Virus record (IMG/VR): IMGVR_UViG_3300010376_000046
Coordinates: 1-50,375 of that record
DNA length: 50,375 nucleotides
From: a virus
Lineage: Duplodnaviria; Caudoviricetes
Strand: one strand, 5' to 3'
Shown piece after piece: positions 8,001 to 36,010 of this stretch. Within the stretch, counting starts at the first letter, position 1. Each line of letters begins with the position of its first letter. The notes beneath the pieces were generated by a model that was not told where the DNA came from, did no database searches, and saw only the letters and a program-made list of their open reading frames with translations. The position numbers and the translations under genes were made by a program.

Positions 8001-9646
8001 TATCTGGACTCCAAAGCTTCAACACGCCGGATCAGATCACGGATGACCGCGGCTTGTATAGCAATGATTTGTTCATAATCAATTGCCAGTTGCATGTCTT
8101 TGGGTGACTCGTATCCGTCATCATCAATTTCATACATGAGACCTTCACGCGGCGCAGCGGTCAACATTTCGGTACCGCTTGTGGATTGTTTACCCACATC
8201 TTGCGCGATGAACCCGCGTACCAAATGCTCCGTATCCCCATTCTTGAAAAACTGCATAGGCGTCACGTTCTGCACAAACCGATAGGCGTACTCAGTATCA
8301 ATCGGCACAATGTGGCTCTTAATACGCCGGTCGGAAATGGCCCAACACTGGTTGACAATCGCTGCCTGCGACGGAATATACAGCCCGGCACCTGTAGTGT
8401 TATTCGATCCCGTACCTGCGCCGCTCGTATTCAGGAAACCGAACCCGCCACTGATGGTATGAGAAGTTCCACCGTTGATGATGAACTGTCCGTTGCCATC
8501 TATCGAATTTGAAAAGTACTGCGTTGTATTGTTCTGATTGACACTGCGGAACACAAAGCCGCCTGCGCCCCCACCACGGTTGTTGACGAAATCCGTTTCA
8601 CCAACACCATTCGATTCATTCCAGTTGATGTAGGTGCCCTGACCGTAGACGCTCGCACCTCCGTTACCGACTGCGAACAGACCGCCAGCACAATGCATTG
8701 CTCCATTGGCTGAAACATCTGCGGCACCAGCAATCTGCCCGGTCGCCGTGATGTTGTTATTCGCATTGAGTGTTCCATTTACAGTCAGACCACCCGCTGC
8801 GATGGTATGCCCGGCACGCGTCCACAAGGCACCGGCATCCGTCAACGTCATGTTGACCGCCGTGTTGCCGTTGTTGACCCATTCCATCTGTCCACCGCTC
8901 GCATTATTCGAGCGGATGAACGGCGCATAGCCGTTGGCGTTCAGCATCATGCCGGGACTGAACTGACCTGATGTAGCTTGTATCTGGGTAATGCCGTTGA
9001 TATTGACTGGCCCACCCAAGACCGTGCCTGCGCCCGTCCCGTCAAGCGACAGCCCACCTGTAGCCAGATTCCAGTAGATCGGGCGATAGGTGTTCCATTG
9101 TCCGTTCTGGTTGCCACTGGCGGTCTGCATGAAGTACACCGCCGACGCATCCATATGGACCATGAAACCATAGTTGCCGTAGATCAGACGGAGGTTCGCA
9201 CCGTTCGCATCGAAGTTCGTACCAACGATGCCACCAGCCGGTACCGCCAGACCTGCGTTTGCCGTCAAGAGACCTGTGACGCCTAACGTACCGGCAATGG
9301 ACGTGTTGCCGTTGTCATCCCAACTGAAAATGGTTTTGCTGTTGGCTGCATTGGTGAAATAGGTAACTTTGGTCGTTATGTTGTAGGCCATAAGCGGGCC
9401 TGTTGCACTACCACCATAGAAAATCGGCCACGCGTAGGTCGCATTTTGTGCGCCCATGTAGATCGGACCATTCTGGTTCAATGATGCACTGTTCGTTTCA
9501 CCCGGCACAGTCAGCGGACCTGTCATCGTGTCACCGGGCCGCTGCACCGCTTGATTGATTTTGGTCTGTGTCGGAGCATCCAGCGAAGTCACCGGAATGG
9601 TATTCGGCGGAATGTTCAACGGATAGGGATTCGGTCCGAGATACAT
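8000..9646 (-). CDS. tail fibre with C-terminal intramolecular chaperone
   Basis: GDTMTGPL motif; SDRRIK, GFIAQDV, DYEQIIA. Confidence 0.85.
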   Translation of the reverse strand: MYLGPNPYPLNIPPNTIPVTSLDAPTQTKINQAVQRPGDTMTGPLTVPGETNSASLNQNGPIYMGAQNATYAWPIFYGGSATGPLMAYNITTKVTYFTNAANSKTIFSWDDNGNTSIAGTLGVTGLLTANAGLAVPAGGIVGTNFDANGANLRLIYGNYGFMVHMDASAVYFMQTASGNQNGQWNTYRPIYWNLATGGLSLDGTGAGTVLGGPVNINGITQIQATSGQFSPGMMLNANGYAPFIRSNNASGGQMEWVNNGNTAVNMTLTDAGALWTRAGHTIAAGGLTVNGTLNANNNITATGQIAGAADVSANGAMHCAGGLFAVGNGGASVYGQGTYINWNESNGVGETDFVNNRGGGAGGFVFRSVNQNNTTQYFSNSIDGNGQFIINGGTSHTISGGFGFLNTSGAGTGSNNTTGAGLYIPSQAAIVNQCWAISDRRIKSHIVPIDTEYAYRFVQNVTPMQFFKNGDTEHLVRGFIAQDVGKQSTSGTEMLTAAPREGLMYEIDDDGYESPKDMQLAIDYEQIIAIQAAVIRDLIRRVEALESR

Positions 9647-9975
9647 TATGATTGCTCCAGTTTGCTCACGATGAAGTCCGCCGTGCCAACATCTAACTGT
9701 GCTGTCAGAAAGTCTCCCGGCTGCATGATGATCTTACCTTCACCACCGACGCACGCGAGCGTATTACCCACGGGTACTGGGCCATTCGTAATGATGGAAC
9801 ATTTCGTTGAACCGCGATTGAGCCACACAGAGGCGTGCTGTGCGTTGACGGTCGTATTAGAACAAGTCAAGCCAATTACGGTAGCAGTTGTGGCCGGACT
9901 CGTAGGGGCGGTATAGAGCGTCGTAACCGTCTGTCCAACCGCCGGTGCCAATGCTGAGTTCAAGATTGAAGGCAT
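9646..9975 (-). CDS. small virion protein (fibre adaptor candidate)
   Basis: TTLYTAP...TVIGLTCSN beta-rich protein, translationally coupled within the fibre cluster. Confidence 0.65.
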   Translation of the reverse strand: MPSILNSALAPAVGQTVTTLYTAPTSPATTATVIGLTCSNTTVNAQHASVWLNRGSTKCSIITNGPVPVGNTLACVGGEGKIIMQPGDFLTAQLDVGTADFIVSKLEQS

Positions 9976-9977
9976 GA

Positions 9978-10700
9978 TTACCCACCGAGTGCGATTGCAT
10001 ATACGATAGCGGTATTATCGGCATACTGCTTTGTCGACGCCCGTAGAGGCAATGTTGGATCACCCGCCAATGTGATCGGACCAGTCATGGTGCCTCCAGA
10101 TAACGGCAAATAGCTACTCAGAGTAGCGGCTGCTTGCTGGGCATAATATTTAGCGCTGTAGTCGATCCCTTGAACCATGCCTGGTAACTGTACTGCCCAT
10201 TGCTGCGCGAGCGTTGCACTGTTAGCCGAAGCTGTTGCACTGTTGCCTGATTGCGTTGCACTCGTTGCTGCTGCGCTAGCGGAATTGCCCGCATTCGTTG
10301 CGCTAGTATTGGCGTTTGTCGCACTAGCCGCTGCGTTATTCTCGCTAGTCTTAGCGTTTGTTTCGCTAGTCTTCGCATTGGTTGCACTAGTACTTGCTTG
10401 GCCCGCACTGTTACCTGCCGCAATAGCTGAGTTCTGTGCATTGGTCGCAGATGTATCTGCGTCGCTTGCACTGGTTGCAGCTTGATTTGCGTAGTTCTGC
10501 GATTGCTGTGCGCTGCTAGCGCTCGCACTTGCGCTGCCCGCTGCATTGCTGGCGCTTTGCGCGGCTTGCGCGGCGCTTTGCGCTGCGGCATTCGCCGAGG
10601 CTTTCGCGTCGATACTCGATGTAGTAATGAATGACCCGAGGACGCCTTCGAGTCCCTGTATCCCATCACCATCAGTAAGGATCAGCCGTAGGGTTCCCAT
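9978..10700 (-). CDS. tail fibre proximal/stalk protein with Ala/Ser heptad repeats
   Basis: SATNAKTSETNAKTSE repeats typical of side-tail-fibre stalks; YSAKYYA and GGTMTG..KQYAD motifs. Confidence 0.75.
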   Translation of the reverse strand: MGTLRLILTDGDGIQGLEGVLGSFITTSSIDAKASANAAAQSAAQAAQSASNAAGSASASASSAQQSQNYANQAATSASDADTSATNAQNSAIAAGNSAGQASTSATNAKTSETNAKTSENNAAASATNANTSATNAGNSASAAATSATQSGNSATASANSATLAQQWAVQLPGMVQGIDYSAKYYAQQAAATLSSYLPLSGGTMTGPITLAGDPTLPLRASTKQYADNTAIVYAIALGG

Positions 10701-11321: not shown

Positions 11322-12127
11322 GATTTAATGCACACCACGCAATCCGCGAACTTCACTTGCGGAGTAGTAAAAGAGTGAACGTGGCCCGCGCCGCCGCCAT
11401 TCGCCTGAATGTTTGCATAACCAGTTCCAATGGAGCACCCGGTGCCAGATGCACTCAAATAGCAACCTGTGCCGCTACCGTTAGTTGGATTCTGTCCGCC
11501 ACGATTTGCACTATAGCCAGTAGCACAAGCAGTCCAGCAACCGTTATTATCTGAACCTGCTTGGGCTGAACCCACATTGGGCAATCCATGTGCGTGACCC
11601 GGATCATTGAACCCATGATTGTGACCAGGATCGCCAAACCCGTGCCCGTGACCTGCATCGCCGTGTCCATGTGACGGCATTTCCGATACGGTCAATACAT
11701 GTGCGTTGTCGTTGAACGTGCCACCGTAGTTCCACGATGACCATGGCGTCGAACCACCGTTGCCCGCACCAGAATTGAAACGCATGGCGCAATCCTGAAA
11801 CGTTGCACTTGCATCCACAGTCCAGCCAGCCGGTGCAGCCGCTTGTTGAAACACGATACGAGTACCTTGGGGCGCTCCAAGCACCGTGTTAAGCTGATTC
11901 AAGTTCACTGCATCAGTACCGGCAGTCCCCGGTGCCAGGTTCTGAATCTTTTGGTTATTCGCATTGACTGGCGTAATCGGAACCGCACCGCCCTGATATA
12001 GCTGTGCAATAAATGCAAACGCCGCCTGAAAGTAATCATTGGCGTAAGGACCAACAATCTCCGAACCCTGTGGAGAATTATTCCCAGGTATCGGTGACAG
12101 ATTGGTTATACTTGATGGGACTGGCAT
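11318..12127 (-). CDS. short tail fibre/needle protein with His-x-His repeats (paralogue B)
   Basis: Collar-like FQQAAAP.GW, LTVSEMPSHGH, repeated GHxH. Confidence 0.8.
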   Translation of the reverse strand: MPVPSSITNLSPIPGNNSPQGSEIVGPYANDYFQAAFAFIAQLYQGGAVPITPVNANNQKIQNLAPGTAGTDAVNLNQLNTVLGAPQGTRIVFQQAAAPAGWTVDASATFQDCAMRFNSGAGNGGSTPWSSWNYGGTFNDNAHVLTVSEMPSHGHGDAGHGHGFGDPGHNHGFNDPGHAHGLPNVGSAQAGSDNNGCWTACATGYSANRGGQNPTNGSGTGCYLSASGTGCSIGTGYANIQANGGGAGHVHSFTTPQVKFADCVVCIKS

Positions 12128-12129
12128 AA

Positions 12130-12924
12130 TTATGACTTAATGCAAATTACACAATCCGCATACTTAACCTGCGGAGTTGTGTAGGTGTGAGAGTGCGCTG
12201 CATTACCGCCTGTTGCTTGAATGTTCGCATAACCTGTACCGATACTGATGCTGGCATAGCCGACACCCACATTCGGACTTCCATTCATGCCACCTGTATT
12301 TGATCCAGAGGTATAAGGCGTACCGATACCGCCCAACCCGCCGCCACCTGAATACGAAAACTGATTCTGCGCCACATATCCGGCGTAAGCATGTGTATGA
12401 TCTGACATGGCATGCTGGTGTCCACCATCGCTCGCACCGTGTCCATGACCAGCGTCACCGTGATTATGCGACGCTATTTCAGCCACAGTCAGTTGATGCC
12501 CAGCAGTATTAAATTGAGCACCGAAGTTCCACGCACTCCATCCAGTTACACCACCATTGCCAACGCTTTGGTTGAAACGCACCGCGCAGTCAGTGAACGC
12601 GGCGTTTGTATCCACAGTCCAATAAGTCGGTGCTGCCGCTTGCTGGAACACTACACGTGTTCCGCTCGGCGCTCCCATAATGGTCAATACTTGCCCAAGC
12701 GTAGCTGCATCAGTATTATTGACTCCATTCGCCAAGTTGACAATGGTCTTATTGTTTGCATTCGGTGACGTTAGCGGCAAACCGCCATTGTCGTACAATT
12801 GCCGAATGAACGCGAACGCAGCTTGAAAATAGTCGTTCGAGTATGGACCGACAATTTCAGACCCTTGCGGCGAATTGTTGCCGGGAGTCTGAGACAGTTG
12901 CGATATACTTGTGGGGACGGGCAT
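12130..12924 (-). CDS. short tail fibre/needle protein with His-x-His repeats (paralogue A)
   Basis: N- and C-termini nearly identical to 11318..12127. Confidence 0.8.
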   Translation of the reverse strand: MPVPTSISQLSQTPGNNSPQGSEIVGPYSNDYFQAAFAFIRQLYDNGGLPLTSPNANNKTIVNLANGVNNTDAATLGQVLTIMGAPSGTRVVFQQAAAPTYWTVDTNAAFTDCAVRFNQSVGNGGVTGWSAWNFGAQFNTAGHQLTVAEIASHNHGDAGHGHGASDGGHQHAMSDHTHAYAGYVAQNQFSYSGGGGLGGIGTPYTSGSNTGGMNGSPNVGVGYASISIGTGYANIQATGGNAAHSHTYTTPQVKYADCVICIKS

Positions 12925-15900
12925 TATTTCGCTCCCGCAGCAGACACACCTGCACCGGCCACTCTACTCAGTAAGCCGGGATTATTAAACTGCTGTGCCA
13001 TCTTGCTGCCCACACTTTGCTGATTCCCTATCTGTTCCAACAGACTAGCTAACTGTTTTGGATTCTGATGCAAGTCCACCATAGACTGTTCGAGCTTACC
13101 TTGCATAGCCTTCATACCTTTGCTACCGAGAAATGACGCCGCCGCAAGCGGGAGGTTGCCATGTGCCAACGCTGTCACGAAGCCCATCGGTCCGCCCAAC
13201 TTGTGCCCAATAATATCGCCAGCCAAACCGCCCCATTGTGGAACAGTACCGTCGCCAGCTTTACTCATGCTGGCTCGGTTGTCGATACTGTTCACAAAAT
13301 CTCGTGCTGCATTGCCTTCCGCGGTGCCCGCATGTTCAGCATCGAGCAGTCCATCAAACGCCCCGCGCACATTACGTGGAGTAAACGAATTCGATAGATT
13401 CAGTTTGTCAATAGCGTCATTCAAAAGACCTTGCCGCTGCACCTTACTCGACAGATCGGTGCCTACGTTAGCCGCTGCTTGCGACTGCCTCATGTACGAG
13501 TTTGAGTTCTGACGAATGTAGTTTTGCCAGTTTTGCAACGCAGACTGCGCATCAACCGCGGCTTGGCCTTTGGCCGAGGCGGCGCGTTGCTGCAATGTGT
13601 CCAACATCTGCATCTGACCTTCACCGCTCAACCCAGTGAGGTTCGTTCTGGCACCCGCCGCATCGCTACTAAGCGAACGCAACGCATCCATATCAGCGTC
13701 AGACACTTTCATTGCGGGGTTAATGAACCCCTTCCTTTGACCTTTCTCAACAGACTTGATGGTACTATTGACTTGACTTGGTACGAGATGACCTTCGTTG
13801 TCAAACGCGTTAGCCATCTTCTGTTGAAGAAACTGCATCCGCTCAATCGGACCGCTAGCTTGTGCCCATGCTTTGTTTGCTTCATTGAACTCAGTACTGT
13901 GGTTATTCAAAGCCGTACCAAGAATCTTCTTGATACGCAGTGCTGCATTCAAATCTGTTCCAGCCGCCGGATTTTTCGCCAGCGACCCAATGGTATTGTT
14001 CAAATCAGAATAGGCGGCTTGTAGTGCCTGAATACTGATTTCCTGTTTCGGAGTCCATTGACCCGGAATTTTTTGAGGTGCCCGAATAGCCTGTGGCCGC
14101 ACGCCATTGTTGTAATTAGCGAGGTCGTCCAGCCCGTTTTCCCATGCCTGCTGGAACATCGGACGCTTAAACAATTGCGACAGAATTGGGTCATTAGCCG
14201 GAATGTATCCGCTAATGTTTCCATACTTTTGCGCAGCGTCAGCAGCACGCGCAGCTTTCATACTCGCCAACTGCTGTGGCGTACCAATTACTTGTTTGAC
14301 TCGCTTGGCTAGATCACTTTGAATCGCACCATGTGCGTCTTCAAATGCTGTGCTTCCTGCATTGCCCGCTGCAGTCGATGCACCTTTAATTGCATTGCGT
14401 GCTTCCGAGTTCGCAGTCAAATTAGCCGCGTCTGCCGCCGATAGCGGTGGCAGTTCACTTGCCACATTGGCCCCAAGATTGTCTTGTGACCGATTGAATG
14501 CACTCAGGTTACCTTCAACGTTCGGGTCTTGTGCTGCTTTCAATGCGTCCATACGGGCAACATCGTTGGCTTCATTGACACCTTGGAACACGCCTTTACC
14601 CGCTGCAGTACTTGATACAGCGTCCTGACTTGCTGCCAATCCAGTTTGACCCGGTGCAGCTTCCGAAGCTGTCATGTTTACATTGGCATGCGGATTGTTC
14701 GCCAATCCAGACCGAATGTCCTGTGCAGCTTGCGCCGGAGTGCTACCAGCGTCTGTGATATCCTTGGCGATTGCCCGCGCGGCTTGCTGCTCCATATCGG
14801 TCGAAAAATCGGCCGCGCCCTTTCCAACAAGGCTTGCCACGCCCTTTCCGGCTGCGCCTATGAGCTTTCCCGCTATTGGCCCAGCGGCCCCCAATAGCGC
14901 GCCCGTTGAAGCATTGCCACCAGCCGCCTCAGATTGCCCCGCGCCGATTCCGGCACTCAGTGCTGTCTCACCAGCTAGTCCGCCTACGCCACCGGTCATC
15001 AAATACGGCGCGACGCTGCCCACAATTCCACCGACTGTGCCGCCCACAGAGTTATCGGCACCTGCCGCTTTTGCTTCGGCTGCGTTCCGTGCAACACCTG
15101 CTTCCGCGTCTTTCTGTAGCCAATCGCCCACATCATTCAGTCCGGCTTGCTTGAGTGCGCCACCAACCAAATGTTGCACACCAAGTGCAGTATTGCCGAA
15201 CTCCTTACCGGCTGCTGCACCAGCGGCTTTCAATTGTCCACCGATACCTTGTACCGCTGGCCCCTGATCGGTAGGCGCAGTCGGCTGTTGCTGAGTTAAC
15301 TGGTTATTGAACTCATCCATCGACATATAGCCTTTGTCGGCAGTCTGAGTCCCAACTTTACCTCCATTCAATTCATCAATCTGTTGCATAATGGACTTAT
15401 TAGCCCACGGCCTATTCCCCTGTGGAGTCATAGCCACAGAATTCGGGATGCGGTTTCCACCAGGAGGCGGAACATAAGCCGACATATCCAATGGACCACC
15501 AAACGATGGCAAGCCACCGGGAGGCGTAGGTGGTCGTGCTACAACTCGAGTTGGCTGTTGCGGCGTAGCTGGCACAGGTTCGGCTTGTGCAGGTATACGC
15601 GCCGGTCCGCCAGATTGACTAGTGCCATCTGTAGTTCCACCCACATCTGTCGCACCCGGCGGTTGAGCCGGAGCTTGTGCAGGCTGAACCGGTGCCGAGA
15701 CTTGTTTATCGCTGCCACCGAAATCCTGAACATGCTGATCGAAGTTTTGCAAATACTTGAGCGTTTCCATCGGTAGCTTATTCAAATCGCCACCGGCTTT
15801 CGCCCACTTATCAGCATTACCAGGACCCCAGTTGTAAGCGATTGCCGCCATATTGGGGTCTTGGTAATGAGTATTCAACGCATTGTAGTAATCGCGCCCA

Positions 15901-16163
15901 ACCCGTGCGCGATCAGCGTCAGTACCATCCCACGGCTTAACGCCATACCCGGGGTCTTTCAACGTTGGCCCCATGGTTTGCATACTGCCTTGCGCGCCGC
16001 TGCTTGGATTGGTGATAGTCGACGTGTCACCCTTACCGTGAGACTCAATAGCGTTGATAGCGGCAGTGTAAACATTGCCGTTTCCAGTGCCAATCTGATT
16101 GTTCAATGAATTCAACTGCGTCATTGACAGATTGGCTAGATCAGGTGCGCCATTGTCAGCCAT
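12924..16163 (-). CDS. large internal virion/ejection protein with lytic transglycosylase (SLT) domain
   Basis: AIES, GAQGSMQ and AYNWGPG SLT motifs near the N-terminus; start moved to ATG 16163, which overlaps the upstream stop. Confidence 0.85.
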   Translation of the reverse strand: MADNGAPDLANLSMTQLNSLNNQIGTGNGNVYTAAINAIESHGKGDTSTITNPSSGAQGSMQTMGPTLKDPGYGVKPWDGTDADRARVGRDYYNALNTHYQDPNMAAIAYNWGPGNADKWAKAGGDLNKLPMETLKYLQNFDQHVQDFGGSDKQVSAPVQPAQAPAQPPGATDVGGTTDGTSQSGGPARIPAQAEPVPATPQQPTRVVARPPTPPGGLPSFGGPLDMSAYVPPPGGNRIPNSVAMTPQGNRPWANKSIMQQIDELNGGKVGTQTADKGYMSMDEFNNQLTQQQPTAPTDQGPAVQGIGGQLKAAGAAAGKEFGNTALGVQHLVGGALKQAGLNDVGDWLQKDAEAGVARNAAEAKAAGADNSVGGTVGGIVGSVAPYLMTGGVGGLAGETALSAGIGAGQSEAAGGNASTGALLGAAGPIAGKLIGAAGKGVASLVGKGAADFSTDMEQQAARAIAKDITDAGSTPAQAAQDIRSGLANNPHANVNMTASEAAPGQTGLAASQDAVSSTAAGKGVFQGVNEANDVARMDALKAAQDPNVEGNLSAFNRSQDNLGANVASELPPLSAADAANLTANSEARNAIKGASTAAGNAGSTAFEDAHGAIQSDLAKRVKQVIGTPQQLASMKAARAADAAQKYGNISGYIPANDPILSQLFKRPMFQQAWENGLDDLANYNNGVRPQAIRAPQKIPGQWTPKQEISIQALQAAYSDLNNTIGSLAKNPAAGTDLNAALRIKKILGTALNNHSTEFNEANKAWAQASGPIERMQFLQQKMANAFDNEGHLVPSQVNSTIKSVEKGQRKGFINPAMKVSDADMDALRSLSSDAAGARTNLTGLSGEGQMQMLDTLQQRAASAKGQAAVDAQSALQNWQNYIRQNSNSYMRQSQAAANVGTDLSSKVQRQGLLNDAIDKLNLSNSFTPRNVRGAFDGLLDAEHAGTAEGNAARDFVNSIDNRASMSKAGDGTVPQWGGLAGDIIGHKLGGPMGFVTALAHGNLPLAAASFLGSKGMKAMQGKLEQSMVDLHQNPKQLASLLEQIGNQQSVGSKMAQQFNNPGLLSRVAGAGVSAAGAK

Positions 16164-26156: not shown

Positions 26157-27176
26157 CTAGCTTTCAAAGAAAGCAGCCAACGTGTTCACACCGGGGTTCT
26201 GTTTGAATGCCTTGTCGGCCTTCTGGAGTCTTGCGACTTCCTTCGTGGAGGCAGTAGGCACACCTCTCCCAGCACCCGGACGCTCAACCTGCCGCGCTTG
26301 CTGCTGGTTCTTCAACAAACCAGCCTTACGCGCCGCAGCCTGTTTAGCCAACGCTCTGTCATAGAGCATCGCCTTACGGGCGATCAGTACGACCTTAGCG
26401 GTATCAATCTGCGCCCGCATTTCGGGTGGCACGCCTTGATCGGCTAGGTACTGATCCAACTCCCGAGCGCCCTGTGCTGCCTTTTGAGGGTCCGACCACT
26501 CTGGTAGCGCCTGAATAAGAAGTGCCTTCTGTTCAGCCGCAAACTGAGTCATGGATGCCTGTCGAGCTTCTGCATCACGGCGTTGCAACTCTTGCTGAAT
26601 ACCTCGCGCTTGACTCAGTTCGGTTTGCTTCTGTTCCCAAACGTGTCGTTGCTTGAGATACTCAGTAGGGTCTTCCTCCAGCAGCTTAGCCCAGTTGGGC
26701 TGTTGGGTCTGCATAAACTGTTGGGATTGCTGGATATAGTACTCGAGTACTTGTCCCAACTGTTTCTCGCGTTCTGGCAGGATAGCCAACTTTGTTTCGG
26801 CGTCCTTTCTGATCGCGGCGGCTTCCTCAAACTTCTTGTTAGCTCCTGCATACTTCTGTGCGTCAGCTTTCAATTGTCCGAAAGTCGTTTGGACCGATGC
26901 ACCATCAATGTTCAACACAACCACCGTTTCATCCTTGATCGCTCCGGTGTCCTGTGGAGTCTCGGCGTTCAAGTCTAATTCGAGGTCTTCATCACCTGCC
27001 GGTACTTCATCACCAACGTGTACTTCTTCACCATCTGGCGTTTCAACTTCAACGCCAGTTTCTACTACTTGGCCTTCGGACTCCCCGTCTGGATTGCCGT
27101 CTGCCGGGTCCATAAAGAAGTCATCGAGTTCAGGTTCAGCGCCCGCTTGTGGGGTAGCTGTAGTGGTCTCGGCCAT
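26157..27176 (-). CDS. capsid scaffolding protein
   Basis: Acidic N-terminus, PNWAKLLEEDP.EY, LPEW.DP, ARKAMLYD; sits between portal and capsid. Confidence 0.85.
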   Translation of the reverse strand: MAETTTATPQAGAEPELDDFFMDPADGNPDGESEGQVVETGVEVETPDGEEVHVGDEVPAGDEDLELDLNAETPQDTGAIKDETVVVLNIDGASVQTTFGQLKADAQKYAGANKKFEEAAAIRKDAETKLAILPEREKQLGQVLEYYIQQSQQFMQTQQPNWAKLLEEDPTEYLKQRHVWEQKQTELSQARGIQQELQRRDAEARQASMTQFAAEQKALLIQALPEWSDPQKAAQGARELDQYLADQGVPPEMRAQIDTAKVVLIARKAMLYDRALAKQAAARKAGLLKNQQQARQVERPGAGRGVPTASTKEVARLQKADKAFKQNPGVNTLAAFFES

Positions 27177-27203
27177 GGTGGACTCCTAAAAATATAATGC
27201 AAG

Positions 27204-29984
27204 TTAATCCTTTTTTCCACCGCTAGGCGATGGTTTAGGCTTTTGGCGTGCCATTTTCTCTTGTGACTTCAACTGTTCCTGCTGCATGTCACTTTGATTC
27301 TGGCGGTCTGCTTCATTCTGCGCAGCTTCGTGTTGTCGATCTGCTTCCTGCTGGTTCGCATCGTGTTGTCTATCAGCATTTTGGTGCGCAGAGTCGAGAT
27401 TTTGCTGACGCATGGCCACTGCCGTATCTGCTGGCATCGAAACGCTACTTCCGTCGATATCATGTAGGACAACTTGCTCGCCTTGACCCGCTGTTTGAGC
27501 GTCTGCACCGGCTTTCATCGCCGCTGCTTGCAAATTAGACGCTTGTTGCGCGTAGAATTTCTCGCGTTCCCACGCCTGTTGTTGCTGGAATTGGTCACGT
27601 TGACGCTTGTCAAGCAACTGTTCCTTCAAAATCAACATTTGCATGCGATTTTGTGCGTCGCGCTCGTCATTTTGTGCTTGCGCGTTAATCTTCATCTGTT
27701 CAATCTGTTGATCGAACTGGAATTTTTGCTGTTCAAGCTGTTGCTGGCCCTGAACTGCGGCCATCTGTGGATTCGGCGGTTGCGGGAACGGCGTTCCGGG
27801 CTGAGGTGCAGTAAAATACTGCGATGGGTCGCCGCGCTGCATTGCGCGCACCAAATCCGACAGTGAATTGAACATATTTGCAGGCGTTACAAGCCCGCCT
27901 GCAATAGCTTGCTGCTGAACCCCGAGAAGTTGCAAAATTTGGGCGATTAGCGCCGCTTGGTCGCCTGTTCCAAGCCCAATGGTGCACTTCATCGTGTATT
28001 TATTGTGCCAAACACGCGGGTCCACATCAGTCCATTTACCGTTCAACTCGAACGCAATGGACTTATCCTGGTGCCGCATGAGCGTTTTCTGCACCAGTTG
28101 ACACATATCTTTCACACCGCCTTCGCCGAACAGGCGGGCGATGAGCTTAACACGCATATCAGCGCGCTGAGTAATACGAGCAAGACCAGAAGCAGTATGG
28201 TTGAGAGTATCGGCATCCATACCCTGCGTGTATTTCGTGACGCCCGACTTCTCTTGAGCGGCGGCGTCGAGATATTCGAGCAGTTGGTATCCACCTTGAG
28301 CGTCCGCCATACCTTGTTGAAGTACGCCGACAGCATTCGCCGATTTGACACGAACCACCCCACCCGGTCGATTAGTCAGTAGATCGTTGATGTTGACCTG
28401 ATTTTCAATCGCCCATGTCCGTCCGTTGATCTGAACATTCATGTTGTCGACTAGAGAGCGCAAAACTCCCGTTTTTGCCAGTTGCATCGGCATTTCGAGG
28501 TCGGCAATTGAACGTCCATAGAACAAACCCGGAATGGGGACCGGGCACAACGCCGCAAACGGTGGCCCATCAACCACCACATTTTCCAGTAGTGCGTTAC
28601 CAGCACGGACGATTTTACGCCACTCGCTGATTCCGTCGCCGTCTGCGTCGATTGGAAGGTAGCATTCGTACAACCATACGAGTCGCATAGACTCGTCGCC
28701 GTAATCATCAAATTGAGACGGCTTATAGACTGTTTGGAGCGACTCTCTGGCCCACATGACCTCTGAGGTTTCGACCGTCAGTGCATCATTGTCACTCGTA
28801 ATCTGGTCCAGATCAATCTCATCGACTCGGTCGCCATACTTGACGCGCAAATCGCTGATGGTTTTTTTCACTCGGTGAGCGCAGAACCCGTCGCTGATAC
28901 GCTTGGAGCGTTCATCAATCAAGAAATCTTCCGGGTTCATCGACTCGATAGCCACATGTCCGCTACGCTGCGACCTCGTCACTACCACATTGTGCAATTG
29001 TGGTAAAGTGGAAACGTCAATCGGTTTCGGCGGTGGCGGTGGCTGCATCGCTGGGCCTTGCGGGGCCATTCCCGGCGGCATCGCACCCGGAGTGCCAGGT
29101 GGGCGTGGGCCACCCATCGGTGGAGGTGCGCCACCAGGTGCGCCACCCGGAGCCGGTGGAGGACTTACTCCCATCGGACCCTGTACTGCTCCAGGTTGCG
29201 GCGGTGGAAACGGCAAACCTTGTGCCTGTGCCATCGCTTTCGCTTCGTTCCATTGGCGCACTGCATCCTGTTGCTGCTTATATTGCGCCATCGCGGCCCG
29301 CTCGGCATTGGGGTCGATGTAACTTGTGAGCTTGGTAATGGTAACTTCGGGGTCATCTGAAATGATAGCCAATTGGCCGTCGTCCAGTTGGTCATACTCT
29401 TCACGCGTCACGTCAGTATACTCGTCCCAAAAGACTTTAGCTATACCGACTTTATTCAGCAAGGAGTTTTTAAACCACTCCAAGAAGAACATGAACCCCG
29501 GATTGTCCTCCATAATGATCCAGTTGACCAAGTTCGTCATTTGCTGCGCTGCATCCACATCACCAGCCTTGCGTGGACCGTACTTGGTAACACAACCCGA
29601 TGCGAGGAACATTTCCATCAACGCGGGCATCATCCACTCAATCTGATCCGACACTGTCGTATCGACCAAATTGGACCTGCCCATAATACCAGGAGGCGAT
29701 AAGTCACCCTCGGCTAGACCGAGATAGTACTGCATCGCCTTGGCTTGTTGAACACTGATTTCAGCACCGAGCCATGTGGTGCTGTTTTTGATACGCGAGC
29801 CGAGAATACTGTCTATCTCAGCATCGGTCATCACCAAGTCTTCTTCTTTCAGATTGGTGGGGTCGTCCTTGGCTTCCTGAACGTGTATAATCTGCACTGG
29901 CACACCCGGCATCGGAATGTTTCCGGGGTGCGTATCGGGACGCCGGTCGTCTCTAAACAGTTCCTCTAGTTCATCGAGTTCCAT
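27204..29984 (-). CDS. portal protein
   Basis: V.DQIEWMMPALM..F, PEDFLID, P.P..FYG.S, DLL..RPGGVVR; Gln-rich C-terminus. Confidence 0.9.
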   Translation of the reverse strand: MELDELEELFRDDRRPDTHPGNIPMPGVPVQIIHVQEAKDDPTNLKEEDLVMTDAEIDSILGSRIKNSTTWLGAEISVQQAKAMQYYLGLAEGDLSPPGIMGRSNLVDTTVSDQIEWMMPALMEMFLASGCVTKYGPRKAGDVDAAQQMTNLVNWIIMEDNPGFMFFLEWFKNSLLNKVGIAKVFWDEYTDVTREEYDQLDDGQLAIISDDPEVTITKLTSYIDPNAERAAMAQYKQQQDAVRQWNEAKAMAQAQGLPFPPPQPGAVQGPMGVSPPPAPGGAPGGAPPPMGGPRPPGTPGAMPPGMAPQGPAMQPPPPPKPIDVSTLPQLHNVVVTRSQRSGHVAIESMNPEDFLIDERSKRISDGFCAHRVKKTISDLRVKYGDRVDEIDLDQITSDNDALTVETSEVMWARESLQTVYKPSQFDDYGDESMRLVWLYECYLPIDADGDGISEWRKIVRAGNALLENVVVDGPPFAALCPVPIPGLFYGRSIADLEMPMQLAKTGVLRSLVDNMNVQINGRTWAIENQVNINDLLTNRPGGVVRVKSANAVGVLQQGMADAQGGYQLLEYLDAAAQEKSGVTKYTQGMDADTLNHTASGLARITQRADMRVKLIARLFGEGGVKDMCQLVQKTLMRHQDKSIAFELNGKWTDVDPRVWHNKYTMKCTIGLGTGDQAALIAQILQLLGVQQQAIAGGLVTPANMFNSLSDLVRAMQRGDPSQYFTAPQPGTPFPQPPNPQMAAVQGQQQLEQQKFQFDQQIEQMKINAQAQNDERDAQNRMQMLILKEQLLDKRQRDQFQQQQAWEREKFYAQQASNLQAAAMKAGADAQTAGQGEQVVLHDIDGSSVSMPADTAVAMRQQNLDSAHQNADRQHDANQQEADRQHEAAQNEADRQNQSDMQQEQLKSQEKMARQKPKPSPSGGKKD

Positions 29985-30014
29985 GGTGCCGTCCTGAGTT
30001 CAGGGCGGGACAGA

Positions 30015-31346
30015 TTAGCCAGTAATCAAACGCGGGTAGTCCAGTTCACGTCCCCAGCCACTCATACCACCCCAGCCTCCACCATGGAAACTGGTATCCA
30101 TCAGTGGTGCATGGACAGCGGCATAGCGTACCATATCGGACGCGTGGGAGTGTTCATCGTGCTGTGGATGCCCATATTTGTTACGCCTATAGCGTTTTAG
30201 GTGCTCCAACAGCTGCTCGCATCTGACCTTGTCAATAAACATCTTCGGCATGGTTTCACGGCAAAGCCTGATGCCGTTTTCCACCCCTAGATTATCCACG
30301 ATTTCGACCGGCCAGCCATAACCCTGCATCATTTCCTGCGGGGTTTCACTGATGAGGATACCGTGGTTCCGCGCATCATGTGGCATGACAACGATTGCGT
30401 TCTCATACCCGCGTCCGCGCAACTCTTCATCGAACCACGACAGCTTCACCCGATTGTTTTCGATGTAATCAACGCACCGGAAGTCCATCACCGTTGCTTG
30501 CCATACGCCACAGGTCATGGCGTCATCGAAACCCAAGTCGAAGACTGCATACGGTTGAATCAACGGGTCGAGAGTGAGTAGGCGCGTGCGTTCTTGACGC
30601 TCCATCTCCACAATTTCATCGAAGTATATTGCACCCTCGACCGCGGCCAGTGGCATTCCCATCCATACATGCTTGTGCAATATCGGATTGCGGCCAAGCA
30701 TATGTTGTTCTTCAAGCTGAAGTACTTTCGGGAACCACGGATTCTGGTCGAAGTTCACGAAAAGACTTGCACAAGCTGGTAAACCTTCCTTGATGACCAG
30801 TTCATAAATTGGGTCAGTTTCCAGAATGGGGTTCCAGCTAAACCAGATTTGCGAACCCTCGGCACGAATGGTAGGAAAAAGGAGTCGAAGTGACTTGAGA
30901 GATACCGACTGTGCCTCCTCGACCCACGCAATATCAATGTCGGCCATTGACTTGATACTATCCACCGTTTCGGCCGTCAGCCCGCGAAAGATGAACGCGC
31001 CGCCGGCGTACCTCTTACTGCGTATTTCATTCGTGAGAATGTCGAACTCACTGGTCAAGCCCAACTCGTTAATCTCATTAACCACATTAGCATAGACTGA
31101 GTCGCGAATCGACAGTTGAACCTCACGCGTGCAGAGTACTCTCAGTTTCCGCTCTGTCGACTTCATTACGAGCGCGCGAGCGAAGTTTTTCGTTTTGCCG
31201 CTGCCGCGCCCGCCGCGCACGCTGATGTAACGCCATTGAGGCTCGAACAAAACTCGAGACCAAGCGGGCATTTTCGCATTCGCGTTAGGTACCGCAACTG
31301 GGGCTAGTGATCGTGCCCAAGGTGGCGGAGTTTGTACATTTGCCAT
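30015..31346 (-). CDS. terL: terminase large subunit
   Basis: Walker A GGRGSGKT, Walker B WVEEA, SWNP, FDLG nuclease motif, SH.SD..RY; start trimmed to ATG 31346. Confidence 0.92.
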   Translation of the reverse strand: MANVQTPPPWARSLAPVAVPNANAKMPAWSRVLFEPQWRYISVRGGRGSGKTKNFARALVMKSTERKLRVLCTREVQLSIRDSVYANVVNEINELGLTSEFDILTNEIRSKRYAGGAFIFRGLTAETVDSIKSMADIDIAWVEEAQSVSLKSLRLLFPTIRAEGSQIWFSWNPILETDPIYELVIKEGLPACASLFVNFDQNPWFPKVLQLEEQHMLGRNPILHKHVWMGMPLAAVEGAIYFDEIVEMERQERTRLLTLDPLIQPYAVFDLGFDDAMTCGVWQATVMDFRCVDYIENNRVKLSWFDEELRGRGYENAIVVMPHDARNHGILISETPQEMMQGYGWPVEIVDNLGVENGIRLCRETMPKMFIDKVRCEQLLEHLKRYRRNKYGHPQHDEHSHASDMVRYAAVHAPLMDTSFHGGGWGGMSGWGRELDYPRLITG

Positions 31347-31406
31347 GTTCAGGGTTGCTCCCTGCCAGTTGAGCCTATAATAGGTGGACAATAGGAGGAA
31401 ATCAAC

Positions 31407-31706
31407 ATGCCAATGAGTGATGAAGACCGCAGAGCTAGACAGAGCGAGACGTGGGCCGGTGAACGTATGTCGCAGTTCCTGAATGATGAACTCATGCAGA
31501 AACATTTTAACGACTTACTTCACGGCTGGCAGAACCAGTGGCTCGACGCACCCACAGTTGAGCAGCGGGAAGAGTTGTGGGCACGCACGCGGGCATTGCG
31601 TGACTTTTTGGAGTCCCTGCAATCAGTTATCAACACCGGCGAAATGGCTGCTGTTCAACTGAAACAGGATAACATGGAACGGCGAGGTGAACAAGATGAG
31701 TCTTAA
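31407..31706 (+). CDS. small helical head-assembly-associated protein
   Basis: AGGAGG RBS; FLND...F...W......REELW...RAL......L......G pattern of the small gene usually found after such portals. Confidence 0.7.
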   Translation: MPMSDEDRRARQSETWAGERMSQFLNDELMQKHFNDLLHGWQNQWLDAPTVEQREELWARTRALRDFLESLQSVINTGEMAAVQLKQDNMERRGEQDES

Positions 31707-31995
31707 CTTTGGCGATGCACTCGCCCTTTTGAAGGTAGGCAAACAAGTTGCCCGTGAAGGCTGGAACGGGAAGAATATGTATCTCTACCTGGTGCCGGGC
31801 CACATGTTCGCAGTGGACAAGGCAAGACCGCCCCTCGACAAGTTGGCGTCGACTGCAACGGTGAGCTATCGCAGCCACATTGATATGCGCACAGCTCAAG
31901 GCGACTTCGTGCCGTGGGTCGCGTCGCAAACAGATCTGCTGGCCGAGGACTGGGTAATTGTGGACGTAGTGGGAGACAATCATGGCAACCGGTAA
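31696..31995 (+). CDS. tad2: DUF2829 / Tad2-like anti-defence sponge protein
   Basis: NFGDAL..LK.G..VAR.GWNGK.M and VPWVASQTDLLAEDW. Confidence 0.8.
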   Translation: MSLNFGDALALLKVGKQVAREGWNGKNMYLYLVPGHMFAVDKARPPLDKLASTATVSYRSHIDMRTAQGDFVPWVASQTDLLAEDWVIVDVVGDNHGNR

Positions 31996-32488
31996 ACAAG
32001 TGACGCCCGCATGGGCACAAGACAAGCCGCGGACACCGGTAGAGTTGGAGAACGATGCGGCCGTGCGTGGCATGAAGGAAGGTTCGGGCACATTGGGCGG
32101 CTTCGCATTGGGCAACAAGAGTCAGCCCACATTGGTTGGTGAAGGCAACACCTTGCAGCCGGGGGAAAACCCGTTCACCAAAAAGGCACCGGAGCCAGTG
32201 GTGGTGCAAGAGGAAGTCATCATCGCGCCCGATGGCACTCCAATGTGGGGCGACTTCGTGAAGTTTGTGATGAAGCACGGCGACCACATTCAACGGGTTG
32301 AGTATCCGAATCCACCAAAGAACACGGACATGGAAGAGTTCTTCCGGGGCAAGCCCGTACCCGCAGGAGGTCGGCCCGTGAATGTAATCGACACCCAGTG
32401 GAAAGGCATACCTGTCTTCCAAGGTGGAGCCGCACGGATCATGCACGACGTATATGGTTGGGCCACATGGGAGGATTGCCAAACATGA
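31982..32488 (+). CDS. hypothetical protein
   Basis: GGGAG RBS; 168-aa ORF coupled to the upstream gene. Confidence 0.6.
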   Translation: MATGKQVTPAWAQDKPRTPVELENDAAVRGMKEGSGTLGGFALGNKSQPTLVGEGNTLQPGENPFTKKAPEPVVVQEEVIIAPDGTPMWGDFVKFVMKHGDHIQRVEYPNPPKNTDMEEFFRGKPVPAGGRPVNVIDTQWKGIPVFQGGAARIMHDVYGWATWEDCQT

Positions 32489-32580
32489 AATGGCGTCGTA
32501 TCTACCACATTGAATACACCATCAGTGGGCACTGGTGGGTGACGATCTATGAGTGCTTTAGGAGATAGGGGGAAATAGGC

Positions 32581-33198
32581 ATGAGTGAGAACAACTGGAA
32601 AGCGGGTGAGAGTGAGGAAGGTTTGGCACCCAGAGACTTCCCGCGCGGTGACGCGTATAATGTGGGAACCGTGGGTGAAGTGGCTGCAAGAGGTCAGCGG
32701 GCCGAGTTGATACGACAGATGGAGGCGGACCGGGCGGAAAGGGGCACCCGGAAGGGTTCGCCGAATAGATTGGCGCGGTATGATATCACCGCAAGCGCCA
32801 AGGTCTATGGACTGCGTGCGCTGGCCACCATTGTCGAGATTATGGAAGACGCCGAGGAAGCCGCACCCGTGCGACTAGCCGCAGCCAAGGAGGTATTGGA
32901 CCGGGCGTTTGGACGACCGAAGCAAATCACCGAGATTGGGGGACTGGATGGAGATGAAATCCGTAATCGACTGGTGATTGAGTTCGTGGGCGCGGGGGCG
33001 GGGCCATTGCCAAGCAGGGTGGAAAACCGGCCGAAGTCGGAAGTGGATCACAGGTGGAACAGCAAAGTGTTGGAGGAAGGCGTAACTCAGGTGGAGGAAG
33101 TTAACCGGGTTGGGGCAAGTGGAGCGGTGGAACCTGCCAGCGATGTGAGTGAAGTGGTGGGAGTGAAACCCAGCTTTGTTAACCCTTGGGCGAAGTAA
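32581..33198 (+). CDS. putative terminase small subunit
   Basis: GTRKGSPN...AL.TIVEIM......VRLAAAKEVLDRAFGRPKQ..EIGG.DG pattern. Confidence 0.65.
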   Translation: MSENNWKAGESEEGLAPRDFPRGDAYNVGTVGEVAARGQRAELIRQMEADRAERGTRKGSPNRLARYDITASAKVYGLRALATIVEIMEDAEEAAPVRLAAAKEVLDRAFGRPKQITEIGGLDGDEIRNRLVIEFVGAGAGPLPSRVENRPKSEVDHRWNSKVLEEGVTQVEEVNRVGASGAVEPASDVSEVVGVKPSFVNPWAK

Positions 33199-33421
33199 AG
33201 GGATGCGAGCGGTGGAAGATAAGAGATTTTCAGCACTCTTGGGATTCTAGAAATTTTTAACTAATCGGTACTCCACTGACCTGCACAAGGTACCCTAGCA
33301 GGGTTTAAGAGGACCCAGTGGCTCTGATTCGGTGTGGTGGGGGTCTCTGGCCCCGTTTTCGCCCGTGTTCGCGGGTCCGGTGGGCGCTCGGTCGCGCCCC
33401 CGTTCCTGTTATGTAAACAGT

Positions 33422-33631
33422 TCACCAATACTGCATCTCGAACGAGTGAAGTGAGTGCTTAAGTCGCTGTGCTTCGGCCCAGTCGCGCGCTTCAGTCTCT
33501 GTTCGCTCCCTAATGTCCCATTCGCCATTAGGGCCAAAAGGTCCGTCTATCATCGGGGGTTGCTCGCGGCAATAGTCCCGCACGATTCCGTCGTCATTCT
33601 TAATACGAAAGATGATTTGCCAGCATGCCAT
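33422..33631 (-). CDS. hypothetical protein
   Basis: GGGAG RBS; own promoter TTGCGA-17-GATAAT on the - strand (33695-33667). Confidence 0.55.
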   Translation of the reverse strand: MACWQIIFRIKNDDGIVRDYCREQPPMIDGPFGPNGEWDIRERTETEARDWAEAQRLKHSLHSFEMQYW

Positions 33632-33690
33632 TTTGTTTGCTCCCTGCATCCGTTGAAAGAGATTCTATTATCGTGAAATTATAGAATTCT

Positions 33691-33809
33691 CGCAACCTAG
33701 GGGAAACCCTAATAGCGCTGTTTCTAGAATTCTGATATTCGCGCATCCGCGCGCATTCCCAAAAAGATTTTAGATTTTTTTCGAAACATAGGGTTTTCCC
33801 TAGGTCGCG
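33691..33809. promoter_or_regulatory. 21-bp inverted repeat pair at divergent promoters
   Basis: 33691-33711 CGCAACCTAGGGGAAACCCTA vs reverse complement of 33789-33809: 19/21 identical. Confidence 0.6.
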
Positions 33810-33913
33810 CGAGCCGATTTAATCTCTAATATTCTATCCATACCAGCGCAATAGGGCGCTAGGCAAAAAATGCAGGGCAATCAAGCCCTAGCGAATTTTT
33901 AGGATTATATATC

Positions 33914-34429
33914 ATGGCAAATCGTTCCAATCGTCGCGCCCAAGCCGCTCAAGCCGCTATTGATCCGCAAGCAAGCGCGGATGCAATCATTGCGGAGCAA
34001 GCCGCTATCCAAGCCGCTGAGCAAGCGCCGCAAGCCGCTGAGCAAGCCGCAATCGTCGCATGGCCTTTCCCCCGCTCCCCTATCGAAGCGCCTAGCGCGG
34101 AGGAAATTGAAGCGGAGCAAGCGGAGGAAAATGAAGCGCTCGCAATGGCGCAGCGCCGCGCGGATGCAATCGCTAATGCCATGCTTGCCGCTGAAAATGC
34201 GCCGAGCAATCGCAGCGCCGCGAAGAAAGAATATATTCATCGCTCAAGCATTCTCAAGCCCACGAAAAAAGTTTGGGCAATCGCAGATGCAATGATTGCG
34301 CATGCGGATGAAAATAATCTGCCGCGCCCAAGCCGCGCGGAGATTATCGCGGAATGCATTGATCGCGGCATCGCAAGCGGAACGAGCGCGACCCAATATC
34401 AGGCATGGAAAAAAGCTATGGGATATTAA
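33914..34429 (+). CDS. Ala/Glu-rich protein with C-terminal helical domain (candidate first-expressed gene)
   Basis: Own promoter, AGGA RBS and double terminator; PTKKVWAIADAM...R.EII..C...GIA..T..TQYQ.W. Confidence 0.8.
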   Translation: MANRSNRRAQAAQAAIDPQASADAIIAEQAAIQAAEQAPQAAEQAAIVAWPFPRSPIEAPSAEEIEAEQAEENEALAMAQRRADAIANAMLAAENAPSNRSAAKKEYIHRSSILKPTKKVWAIADAMIAHADENNLPRPSRAEIIAECIDRGIASGTSATQYQAWKKAMGY

Positions 34430-34443
34430 AATGCATAGCTTTC

Positions 34444-34508
34444 AATGGGGCTTCGGCCCCATTTTTTTCGCCCAGCCGATAGCTAAAATCTATCGGCTTT
34501 TTGCTTTT
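34444..34508 (+). terminator. tandem rho-independent terminators
   Basis: AATGGGGC-TTCG-GCCCCATT + T run, then AGCCGATAG...CTATCGGCT + T run. Confidence 0.75.
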
Positions 34509-34679
34509 CATAGCTCCCGCGCCAATCGCATTTTTAGCCCCGCCAAGCCGCTAGGCATAGAAGCGCATAGGGATATATTGCCAGCGCCGAGCAAGCCGCG
34601 CCACGCGCCTAAAAATGCCCCTAGCGCCGATGTTTTGAGCCGAGCAAGCCCCGCATTTTCGCTCGCCAGCCGCGCACTG

Positions 34680-34989: not shown

Positions 34990-35406
34990 CTATTTGTACC
35001 ACAGTATGTCTGACGGCACGCGGATATCGAGGTACCACACGAGCGCATCGAATGCCGCGCGCCAGTGATGAAAAACCCCGTAGAGATACCCTTGGCTCGC
35101 AACAAAGGTTTCGAACTCTTTCTGCACTTTACTTTGCGTACCATGTGCGTTCTTCATTTCTAGAAAGAAGCCGTGATAACCTTTGCGTGCAACAGGTAAT
35201 AATAAATCCGCAACTCCAGGTTTCACTCCTTCGGCTTTTAACATACTCGCCACCGCCAGGTTTCGGTCACCACCATTCGGTATAGCGAACAACCATTTCA
35301 ACTCAGGTGCCACTTCCCATAGACGGGGTAAACTCGACAAAAGTGCCGCTTGCTGGCTATGTTCCGATACTCCCGCTATACTGTCTGGATCAGACATGTC
35401 TCTCAT
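34990..35406 (-). CDS. VRR-NUC domain nuclease / Holliday junction resolvase
   Basis: EHSQQ, FAIPNGG.R, LKAEGVKPGVADL, FLEMK...G.QS..QK. Confidence 0.85.
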   Translation of the reverse strand: MRDMSDPDSIAGVSEHSQQAALLSSLPRLWEVAPELKWLFAIPNGGDRNLAVASMLKAEGVKPGVADLLLPVARKGYHGFFLEMKNAHGTQSKVQKEFETFVASQGYLYGVFHHWRAAFDALVWYLDIRVPSDILWYK

Positions 35407-35554
35407 TTTTCACTTCCTCATCTTGTGTCAAAACCGCCGTACCACAATCACTATGCACGCCCAAGCGCCCACATGGATCACCAGCAGCCGCTCAACTTCG
35501 TCACGACCGCAATAATCAGCACCCATGCTATTACCCACAGTACATCATGCTTAC

Positions 35555-35821
35555 TCATTTCATTACATACCCACCAGTTTCATGATCCCATCGCCACTCG
35601 CGTCCATCATACTCACTAATCGTGTCATCAAGACTTACTTCACTATGCCTACTCCACTTTATCCACTCTTCTTGCGCAGCTTCCATAACTTTGTCTCGAT
35701 CCTTGTTAATCTTGATATTGTAAATCCACACCCATCGATCACTGCCATTCAGTCTAACTTGCAATTCCGCATGGCTCGATTGATCGAAATGCACAACAAT
35801 AATTCTCACATTAGCATCCAT
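35555..35821 (-). CDS. hypothetical protein
   Basis: GGGTG RBS-like sequence; 88-aa ORF on the replication strand. Confidence 0.5.
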   Translation of the reverse strand: MDANVRIIVVHFDQSSHAELQVRLNGSDRWVWIYNIKINKDRDKVMEAAQEEWIKWSRHSEVSLDDTISEYDGREWRWDHETGGYVMK

Positions 35822-35839
35822 GTTTCACCCAGATTATAA

Positions 35840-36010
35840 AAGTTTAGAATTGCTTAATTAAGCAAGCTAATTTAGGCACTGCTAATTTAAGCGCTGCTAA
35901 AATTAAATAAGGGGGGGGGGCAAGCCCCCCCTATCCCCCTAATTTTAGCTATTAGCCCGTGAGTTATTTCAGCAGGTTAACTTCAGCTAATTTCAGCGCT
36001 ATTTCAGCCG
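35840..36010. repeat. putative replication origin (AT-rich iterons and hairpin)
   Basis: 16-bp palindrome TTGCTTAATTAAGCAA, repeated GCTAATTT, G10-CAAG-C7 hairpin, four TTCAGC repeats, directly after the primase gene. Confidence 0.5.

Follow-up and report, generated by a model that had tools for sequence, protein, structure and literature searches.

Phages with a distinct early-entering region or early gene are exemplified by T5, with its first-step-transfer DNA, and by T7, with its ocr gene. The leading region of Murciavirus (Autographiviridae) is reported to avoid a motif through which the Type I RM system Mme2I acts (PMC12455610). The closest described systems in terms of DNA chemistry are the phages CAjan and iggy. 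Modification at GA/GGC (dPreQ0) was measured in CAjan (PMC7544227), and the DpdA enzyme of iggy modifies GA only, with 97% of GA sites modified (PMC10484667). The tRNA transglycosylases, the parent family of DpdA, are described as taking the G in UGU (PMC10103133). Host enzymes directed against such DNA have also been reported: the Dag1/Dag2 glycosylases cut preQ0 DNA (10.1101/2025.10.29.685425), and END nucleases restrict Seuratvirus and Nonagvirus (10.1101/2025.03.31.646159). The locus described here resembles the Murciavirus leading region, the T5 first-step-transfer DNA and T7 ocr in that it is a short, predicted first-entering segment with its own sequence rule and small early genes. Unlike the avoidance of Type I RM in Murciavirus, the word cleared here is a dinucleotide and likely the phage's own modification target, and the clearance is thorough enough to alter the amino acids of the encoded protein.

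The window, by which we mean the whole 50,375-nt stretch of DNA that was analysed, represents a lytic podovirus-like phage and is 86% complete. Positions 33845-34675 (831 nt), hereafter the island, contain 4 AC and 5 GT dinucleotides, with observed-to-expected ratios (O/E) of 0.06 and 0.12, respectively, and mononucleotide shuffling of the same segment yielded a mean of 103.7 AC and GT steps and a minimum of 74 in 20,000 shuffles. This is the sole such hole within the window (z -6.8, log10 P -28.8 in 800-nt windows), and neither another dinucleotide pair nor another position in the window approaches this depletion. The steps GC, AT and CG, which make up common type II sites, are enriched in the island. 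The right edge at 34676 is abrupt, with 48 AC/GT sites in the next 314 nt compared with 38.5 expected, and a left shoulder (33600-33844) is partially depleted (11 sites vs. 29.2 expected). The 69-nt leader of the island gene has no AC/GT site (8.2 expected), the 246-nt 3′ flank has two (30.0 expected), and the seven sites of the coding sequence correspond to three Thr, two Val and two Arg CGT codons. The first-pass annotation had counted 5 GT and 4 AC in about 830 nt, which is exact (about 104 are expected in total), and had described a depletion that covers the leader, the coding sequence and about 250 nt of non-coding DNA and stops abruptly near 34676, with five of the seven coding sites forced by three Thr and two Val; the recount agrees with it on all of these points.

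The avoidance is also evident at the level of synonymous choice. The island protein yielded 33.5 ± 4.1 sites (minimum 19) when its codons were resampled from genome usage and 16.3 ± 2.2 sites (minimum 9) when the existing codons of the gene were shuffled, compared with the seven observed; neither procedure reproduced the depletion (0 of 20,000 each). Within codons, NAC occurs 0 times vs. 19 for NAT, so that Asp, Asn, His and Tyr use NAT codons only, as had been claimed, and NGT occurs twice vs. 19 times for NGC. At codon junctions, A before C occurs 0 times vs. 16 for G before C, and G before T 0 times vs. 6 for A before T. The same four synonymous alternatives are used near-evenly genome-wide, and the islands of three related genomes, labelled G001, G002 and G004, show the same avoidance as the window. 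Because both the G and the T of the step are altered, a single mutable base cannot account for the depletion. Furthermore, because the synonymous choices drop both bases and the two non-coding flanks are cleared, the AC/GT clearance is the result of selection on the DNA step, and this selection is strand-symmetric; the first-pass annotation had proposed as much, and the codon tests and the cleared flanks support it. A by-product of a low-complexity Ala/Gln/Glu protein, of repeats or of local mutational bias has next to no probability as an explanation. Thr and Val are scarce in the island protein (1.8% and 1.2%; approximately 2% each in G001, G002 and G004), and comparable low-complexity genes in iggy and Vid5 show shallow dips, but the codon shuffles, the non-coding flanks and the four classes of synonymous avoidance contradict this reading, as does the normal AC/GT content of the protein's family at its other locus. 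We therefore consider it refuted by the codon-shuffle and synonymous-avoidance results.

The AC/GT-free core (33845..34675), delimited by dinucleotide counts, comprises the leader, the gene, a terminator and approximately 200 nt beyond. The island gene (33914..34429, + strand) encodes a 171-aa HTH-like protein of the phrog_7864 family, a homologue of BcepGomr gp65, and is followed by an intrinsic-terminator-like hairpin and a second hairpin (34444..34498, + strand), the first of which is conserved in G001. The shoulder (33600..33844), recognized from its counts, carries divergent sigma70-like promoter matches, which are consensus matches only, at 33653-33682 (+) and 33695-33667 (-). A 24-nt inverted repeat in the sequence at 33688..33812 is a candidate operator, and each of its arms holds the palindrome TAGGG-N4-CCCTA (33698, 33789); this palindrome also occurs inside the island, or at its border, in G001, G002, G004 and G005, and in none of the islands of G003, G036, G037 and BcepGomr. 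At the left edge of the depletion lies a divergent 75-aa ORF (33422..33649, - strand) that is 86% identical in G001. Beyond it, the motif GGTACC...GGGGGT (33267..33345, + strand) is, by its position only, a candidate genome-end or packaging-site sequence; it precedes the island in the window and in G001-G005, and in its loose form it has further matches at other places in many genomes. A probable small terminase (phrog_15261; 32581..33198, + strand), so named for its position and conservation, and the large terminase gene terL (30015..31505, - strand) follow in this direction, and the island lies approximately 2.5 kb upstream of the likely terL start. On the other side, a small nuclease/resolvase-like gene (phrog_824; 34990..35406, - strand) with a weak Holliday-junction resolvase match flanks the island gene, as it does in all nine genomes of the clade described below. 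Four + strand genes that include the probable small terminase occupy 31407-33198, opposite to terL, and likewise in G001; the same four genes are on the terL strand in G002-G004, which represents an inversion beside the presumed genome end.

In the island protein, a variable helical N-terminus rich in Ala, Gln and Glu is followed by a conserved C-terminal domain of 60 residues and three helices, and the predicted model of the protein has a pLDDT of 96-98 across most of residues 121-170. The best structural matches are HTH, winged-helix and RecX domains (Z 5-6.6, rmsd about 2), and the predicted fold of the C-terminal domain is HTH-like. Foldseek gave no significant match and Pfam no match, no named family was obtained from Pfam, Foldseek, VIA-align or the ESM Atlas, and no known defence inhibitor was matched. 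The family is closely associated with dpdA, which was found in 4 of 4 and 14 of 15 viral genomes reached through the island protein family; conversely, a family member is present in 18 of 24 dpdA genomes. Among 44 family loci, the 35 located away from terL or the nuclease gene, mostly between the helicase and que genes, have AC/GT O/E values of 0.64-1.01, whereas the nine beside terL or the nuclease gene, which represent seven contigs of the clade's terminal copy, some of them near-duplicates, have values of 0.22-0.49. Depletion in this family is thus a property of the genomic position and not of the protein. Paralogues of the HTH domain also occur: a second short copy lies within the islands of G002 (15682-15993), G004 (2509-2847) and G005, a further one is located between the helicase and que genes of G001 (8228-8941), and many dpdA genomes carry two to four copies.

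We determined the deepest 800-nt dinucleotide hole in each of 55 other genomes, 40 with dpdA and 15 without. The nine deepest AC/GT holes among the 55 belong to all nine sampled members of one DpdA clade, counts that are not independent trials because the scanned genomes are related and were picked through homology. The log10 P values are -26.3 (G004), -24.6 (G002), -21.3 (G001), -16.2 (G005), -10.6 (BcepGomr), -10.3 (G036), -8.9 (G037), -7.1 (ART) and -6.8 (G003). The clade received a FastTree support of 0.978 in a tree of 80 loci and 20 named rows, with Dp-1 and TA17A left out; IQ-TREE on 22 DpdA rows left most branches open and grouped six island genomes at 89/90. The DpdA loop of the clade reads W-x4-[HF]GN, with VQISAHGN in G001. 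The holes of G036 and G037 were forecast with their positions ahead of the scan and both were found, and the forecast that eight named out-of-clade genomes would lack an AC/GT hole also held. In 28 of 31 out-of-clade dpdA genomes, no hole falls below -9. The holes of the weakest clade members, G003 and ART, are only slightly deeper than those of the DpdA-negative phages RcPutin (-6.3, at the right end) and PB1 (-5.5), and the cut-off was chosen after the data were seen. The clade's nine holes are spread over two virion types and several hosts. Four of the nine clade genomes (BcepGomr, ART, G036 and G037) have another terminase family, and no AC/GT hole was found in the DpdA-negative phages KL1 and BcepB1A of Burkholderia (-2.0 each) and Axy20 of Achromobacter (-2.5). 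Because the clade's holes span terminase families and DpdA-negative phages of the same hosts lack the hole, neither virion type nor host genus provides an explanation. RcPutin, which carries a DNA methylase gene, shows an AC/GT gradient over 27000-31606 down to 0.4-0.5 at its right end, together with a milder loss of GA/TC and AG/CT. Three divergent dpdA-like genes in a row were observed at 86516-89577 of the 97-kb phage record G028.

The window record, which covers 86% of the genome, lacks dpdA. However, the window is colinear with G001 (63.6 kb), the only genome recovered when pol and DpdA each served as a single-protein query; identity is 80-97% in pol, terL, portal, capsid, Cas4 and Sak4, and the 13.5 kb of G001 beyond the reach of the window contain the helicase, queE, queC, queD, folE, dpdA and a clamp gene. 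The G001 dpdA stops approximately 1.1 kb short of the gene that corresponds to the first ORF of the window. A blastn search of the island region against annotated phages gave no match. The run X1 contains 98% of the words of the island region, and in this run a 2651-nt contig with a depth of 38.3 spans all of the G001 dpdA, from which it differs at 149 positions in 952 nt (approximately 84% identity); the window's own contigs in the run have depths of 40 and 34. At 80% likeness, no X1 contig at the window's depth covers the que/folE genes; folE, queD, queE and queC are present in G001, G036 and G037. Given the matching contig depth and the synteny with G001, the phage of the window very likely carries dpdA. 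The same run also contains a G001-identical strain at a depth of 5-6. Directly before queE, G001 has a gene for a phrog_850 RNA-binding protein (11357-12769), which presumably resembles TROVE/Ro60.

Compared with CAjan and iggy, the enzyme belongs to the same family (phrog_887), the G001 DpdA is 44-46% identical to those of the two phages, G001 has the same queE/queC/queD/folE set, and iggy has the same kind of island. The differences are a predicted GT rather than GA target, a separate DpdA clade and a different loop sequence. The deepest hole of iggy is in GA/TC (20 sites vs. 77.6 expected); it lies across the record ends, in GT/AC-rich DNA, upstream of small leftward genes. Two further genomes, G043 and G049, have GA/TC holes (-21.9 and -28.5), each over a small gene, and the DpdA loop of both is of the CAjan type, IQAAAFGS. 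The hole protein of G043 matches the family profile at an E value of 2e-8; that of G049 matches weakly, at 0.04, but visibly aligns with that of G043. The composition of these proteins is reversed: Asp and Glu together number 8 in G043, 2 in G049 and 22 in the window, and Thr and Val number 19, 27 and 5, respectively. Judged from these sequences, one kind of small gene is rewritten under two opposite dinucleotide bans, GT/AC and GA/TC. The missing dinucleotide tracks the DpdA type, being AC/GT in the one clade and GA/TC in iggy, G043 and G049. Of the two traits of the GA type, the IQxAAFG[ST] loop is absent from G001, and the genome-wide GA/TC deficit is absent from G001 and the window, in which the genome-wide GA/TC rho is 0.95-0.97, compared with 0.80 in iggy and 0.87 in CAjan; within islands, G is followed by A at 18-27%. 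A strong GA/TC hole is present in only 3 of 12 genomes with a GA-type loop, and CAjan has none despite its measured GA modification (best -4.0). The searched passages of the CAjan and iggy papers contain no mention of a motif-free region (PMC7544227, PMC10484667).

Some minor observations relate to these comparisons. A genome-wide GA/TC deficit of 0.80-0.87 is found in the GA-loop phages iggy, CAjan, Vid5 and R7M, and PaMx25 and MMDA13 have values of 1.11-1.12 although their loop is of the same type as in iggy and CAjan; these two may have another motif. An AC/GT dip in iggy (38.5 kb) and a GA/TC dip in Vid5 (38.7 kb) were rejected as islands and represent low-complexity or duplicated genes. 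In the Wifcevirus ECML-117, a CA/TG hole spans 6500-8500 (27 sites vs. 115, log10 P -22.3). Pbunaviruses, which share 7 of 10 tested ECML-117 genes, carry hypermodified thymine in TG according to two sources (10.1101/2025.03.31.646159; for TG also PMC13458397), and PB1 shows no CA/TG hole. By analogy, thymine hypermodification in a TG context may explain the CA/TG holes of Wifceviruses.

Upstream of terL, at a distance of 2.5-8 kb from its start, the hole is found in the window, G001-G005, BcepGomr, ART, G036, G037, iggy, G043 and G049, and the island separates the late (terminase) arm from small early genes that have host-type promoter-like sites. In phage 9g, the mapped end and divergent promoters are reported at the late/early junction (PMC4276943), and the genome of iggy has a 1091-bp terminal repeat (PMC10484667). 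In G002, G004 and G005, the depletion sets in sharply on the terminase side, no more than approximately 100 nt from the GGTACC...GGGGGT motif, and fades over 3-5 kb. In the window, the depletion is shorter, it breaks off sharply on the side facing away from terL, and approximately 250 nt of normal sequence separate the end-like motif from the shoulder. The placement at the late/early junction upstream of terL fits a leading or terminal segment, as far as gene order can suggest.

In our view, the island is a real feature, selected and conserved, and it most likely reflects a phage that leaves its first gene clear of the base modification that it makes itself. From the clade-wide comparison, it appears probable that GT is the target of this clade's DpdA and that the island is left unmodified. 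According to this proposal, the clade's DpdA would insert preQ0 at the G of GT on both strands, the target being read from the hole itself, and because tRNA transglycosylases act on UGU, a GT target is chemically plausible. DpdA would replace G by preQ0 at its motif after replication, and a segment without the motif would then be plain DNA inside an otherwise modified virion genome. The island, predicted to enter first, would carry no 7-deazaguanine and might thereby escape host nucleases and glycosylases of modified guanine long enough to express the small HTH protein. This protein could protect or license the modified rest of the genome, a guess suggested by its steady dpdA/que linkage. That the island is unmodified so that the predicted first-entering segment escapes modification-sensing host defence is a tentative reading, to which we would assign a little less than an even chance. 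Dag1/Dag2, the END nucleases with anti-END1, and GmrSD with T4 IPI* provide precedents for a cost of 7-deazaguanine and for small phage counter-proteins. In contrast to anti-END1 or T4 IPI*, the island protein does not resemble any known inhibitor, and the phage has not been linked to a defence.

A close rival is that the island is unmodified to allow initiation and elongation of the first transcripts by the host RNA polymerase, after which the HTH product would aid the modified remainder; taken alone, we regard it as rather unlikely. Transcription by the E. coli and B. subtilis RNA polymerases is reported to be almost blocked by 7-ethynyl-7-deazaG, which is similar in shape to preQ0, with initiation as the probable step affected; the -35 element includes a contacted G (PMC4838386), which in TTGACA belongs to a GT step. 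A need of this kind would agree with the divergent promoter-like sites and candidate operators within the island, as well as with the minor dips at the second divergent intergenic region of G001 (35451-36001). However, approximately 80 clean bases would suffice for initiation, which is less than an entire coding sequence with altered amino acids and a further 250 nt beyond the terminator. Moreover, in a crude test on pooled sites, AC/GT O/E is 0.96 at 79 AT-rich TATAAT sites outside the islands of 10 clade genomes, GA/TC O/E is 0.99 at 178 TATAAT sites of 12 GA-type genomes, and such sites lean to depletion only in the window (43 vs. 68.7) and G001 (109 vs. 140). Our preference for escape from host defence is based on the clearance of the entire gene together with its 3′ flank, on a gradient that starts at one end, and on the other TATAAT-like sites, which are not depleted when pooled; the whole-gene and 3′ clearance, the sharp terminase-side edge and the slow decay in G002, G004 and G005 fit a cost that is timed to entry. 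A different use of plain DNA, namely that phage or host proteins need it for genome-end handling (terminal-repeat regeneration, replication start or packaging), would agree with a hole that adjoins the end-like motif and that, in iggy, extends across both record ends, the genome being terminally repeated over 1091 bp (PMC10484667). Nevertheless, the end-like motif is itself GT-rich, and the hole is centred on the gene and its leader and occurs with two terminase families, and we consider this use very unlikely.

The remaining alternatives dispense with DpdA as the agent. The members of the clade are kin, related through the replication module, so that the gene responsible could be any that was inherited together with dpdA; the island might thus avoid another enzyme, a nuclease, nickase or methylase that reads GT/AC. 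The milder AC/GT gradient at the right end of RcPutin, which has a methylase gene and no dpdA, points in the same direction. We nevertheless judge this quite unlikely, because the hole of iggy is exactly the measured DpdA motif, the GA/TC holes of G043 and G049 would be left unexplained, and no methylase was found among 57 window proteins or 13 scanned G001 proteins. The first-pass annotation had attributed the island to avoidance, in a first-injected segment, of a dinucleotide shared by many defence targets, such as RM or phosphorothioate sites, or to a packaging signal. Precedent exists in the action of Type I RM through leading-region motifs in Autographiviridae (PMC12455610), and the end gradient of RcPutin is independent of DpdA. 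This attribution is not supported: the avoided step switches with the DpdA type and not with host genus or terminase family, and KL1, BcepB1A and Axy20, which lack dpdA and infect the same host genera, have no AC/GT hole. In addition, the clearance of a whole dinucleotide far exceeds what 4-7-bp sites would need, and GC, AT and CG steps are enriched. Avoidance of host RM or phosphorothioate targets is therefore highly improbable.

Base modification shields phage DNA from restriction, exposes it to modification-sensing defences and may hinder the host RNA polymerase, and a modification-free leading island would represent a trade-off solved through genome layout. DpdA modification itself is known; the GT form and the switch of the dinucleotide with the DpdA clade, seen across 55 genomes, are new here, and neither a GT-specific DpdA nor a motif-free leading island was found in the literature searched, which includes few subscription papers. 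More broadly, DNA-modifying phages may generally purge the dinucleotide of their own enzyme from the first-entering gene, and the HTH family may read or shield 7-deazaguanine DNA, a generalization that we hold to be possible but doubtful. If it is true, the missing dinucleotide would reveal enzyme specificity (GT for this DpdA clade, GA for the iggy type and TG for Wifceviruses), and the HTH family of the island would be a so far undescribed factor that recognizes or shields 7-deazaguanine DNA and so overcomes modification-dependent immunity. This would provide a sequence-only route to the modification motifs of uncultured phages and would assign to the 7-deazaguanine system an HTH family that is widespread and has no name. 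For the cultured phages BcepGomr and vB_Ade_ART, the prediction is a DpdA that modifies GT.

Elsewhere in the window, positions 4972-10700 contain four tandem tail-fibre-like genes with related C-termini.
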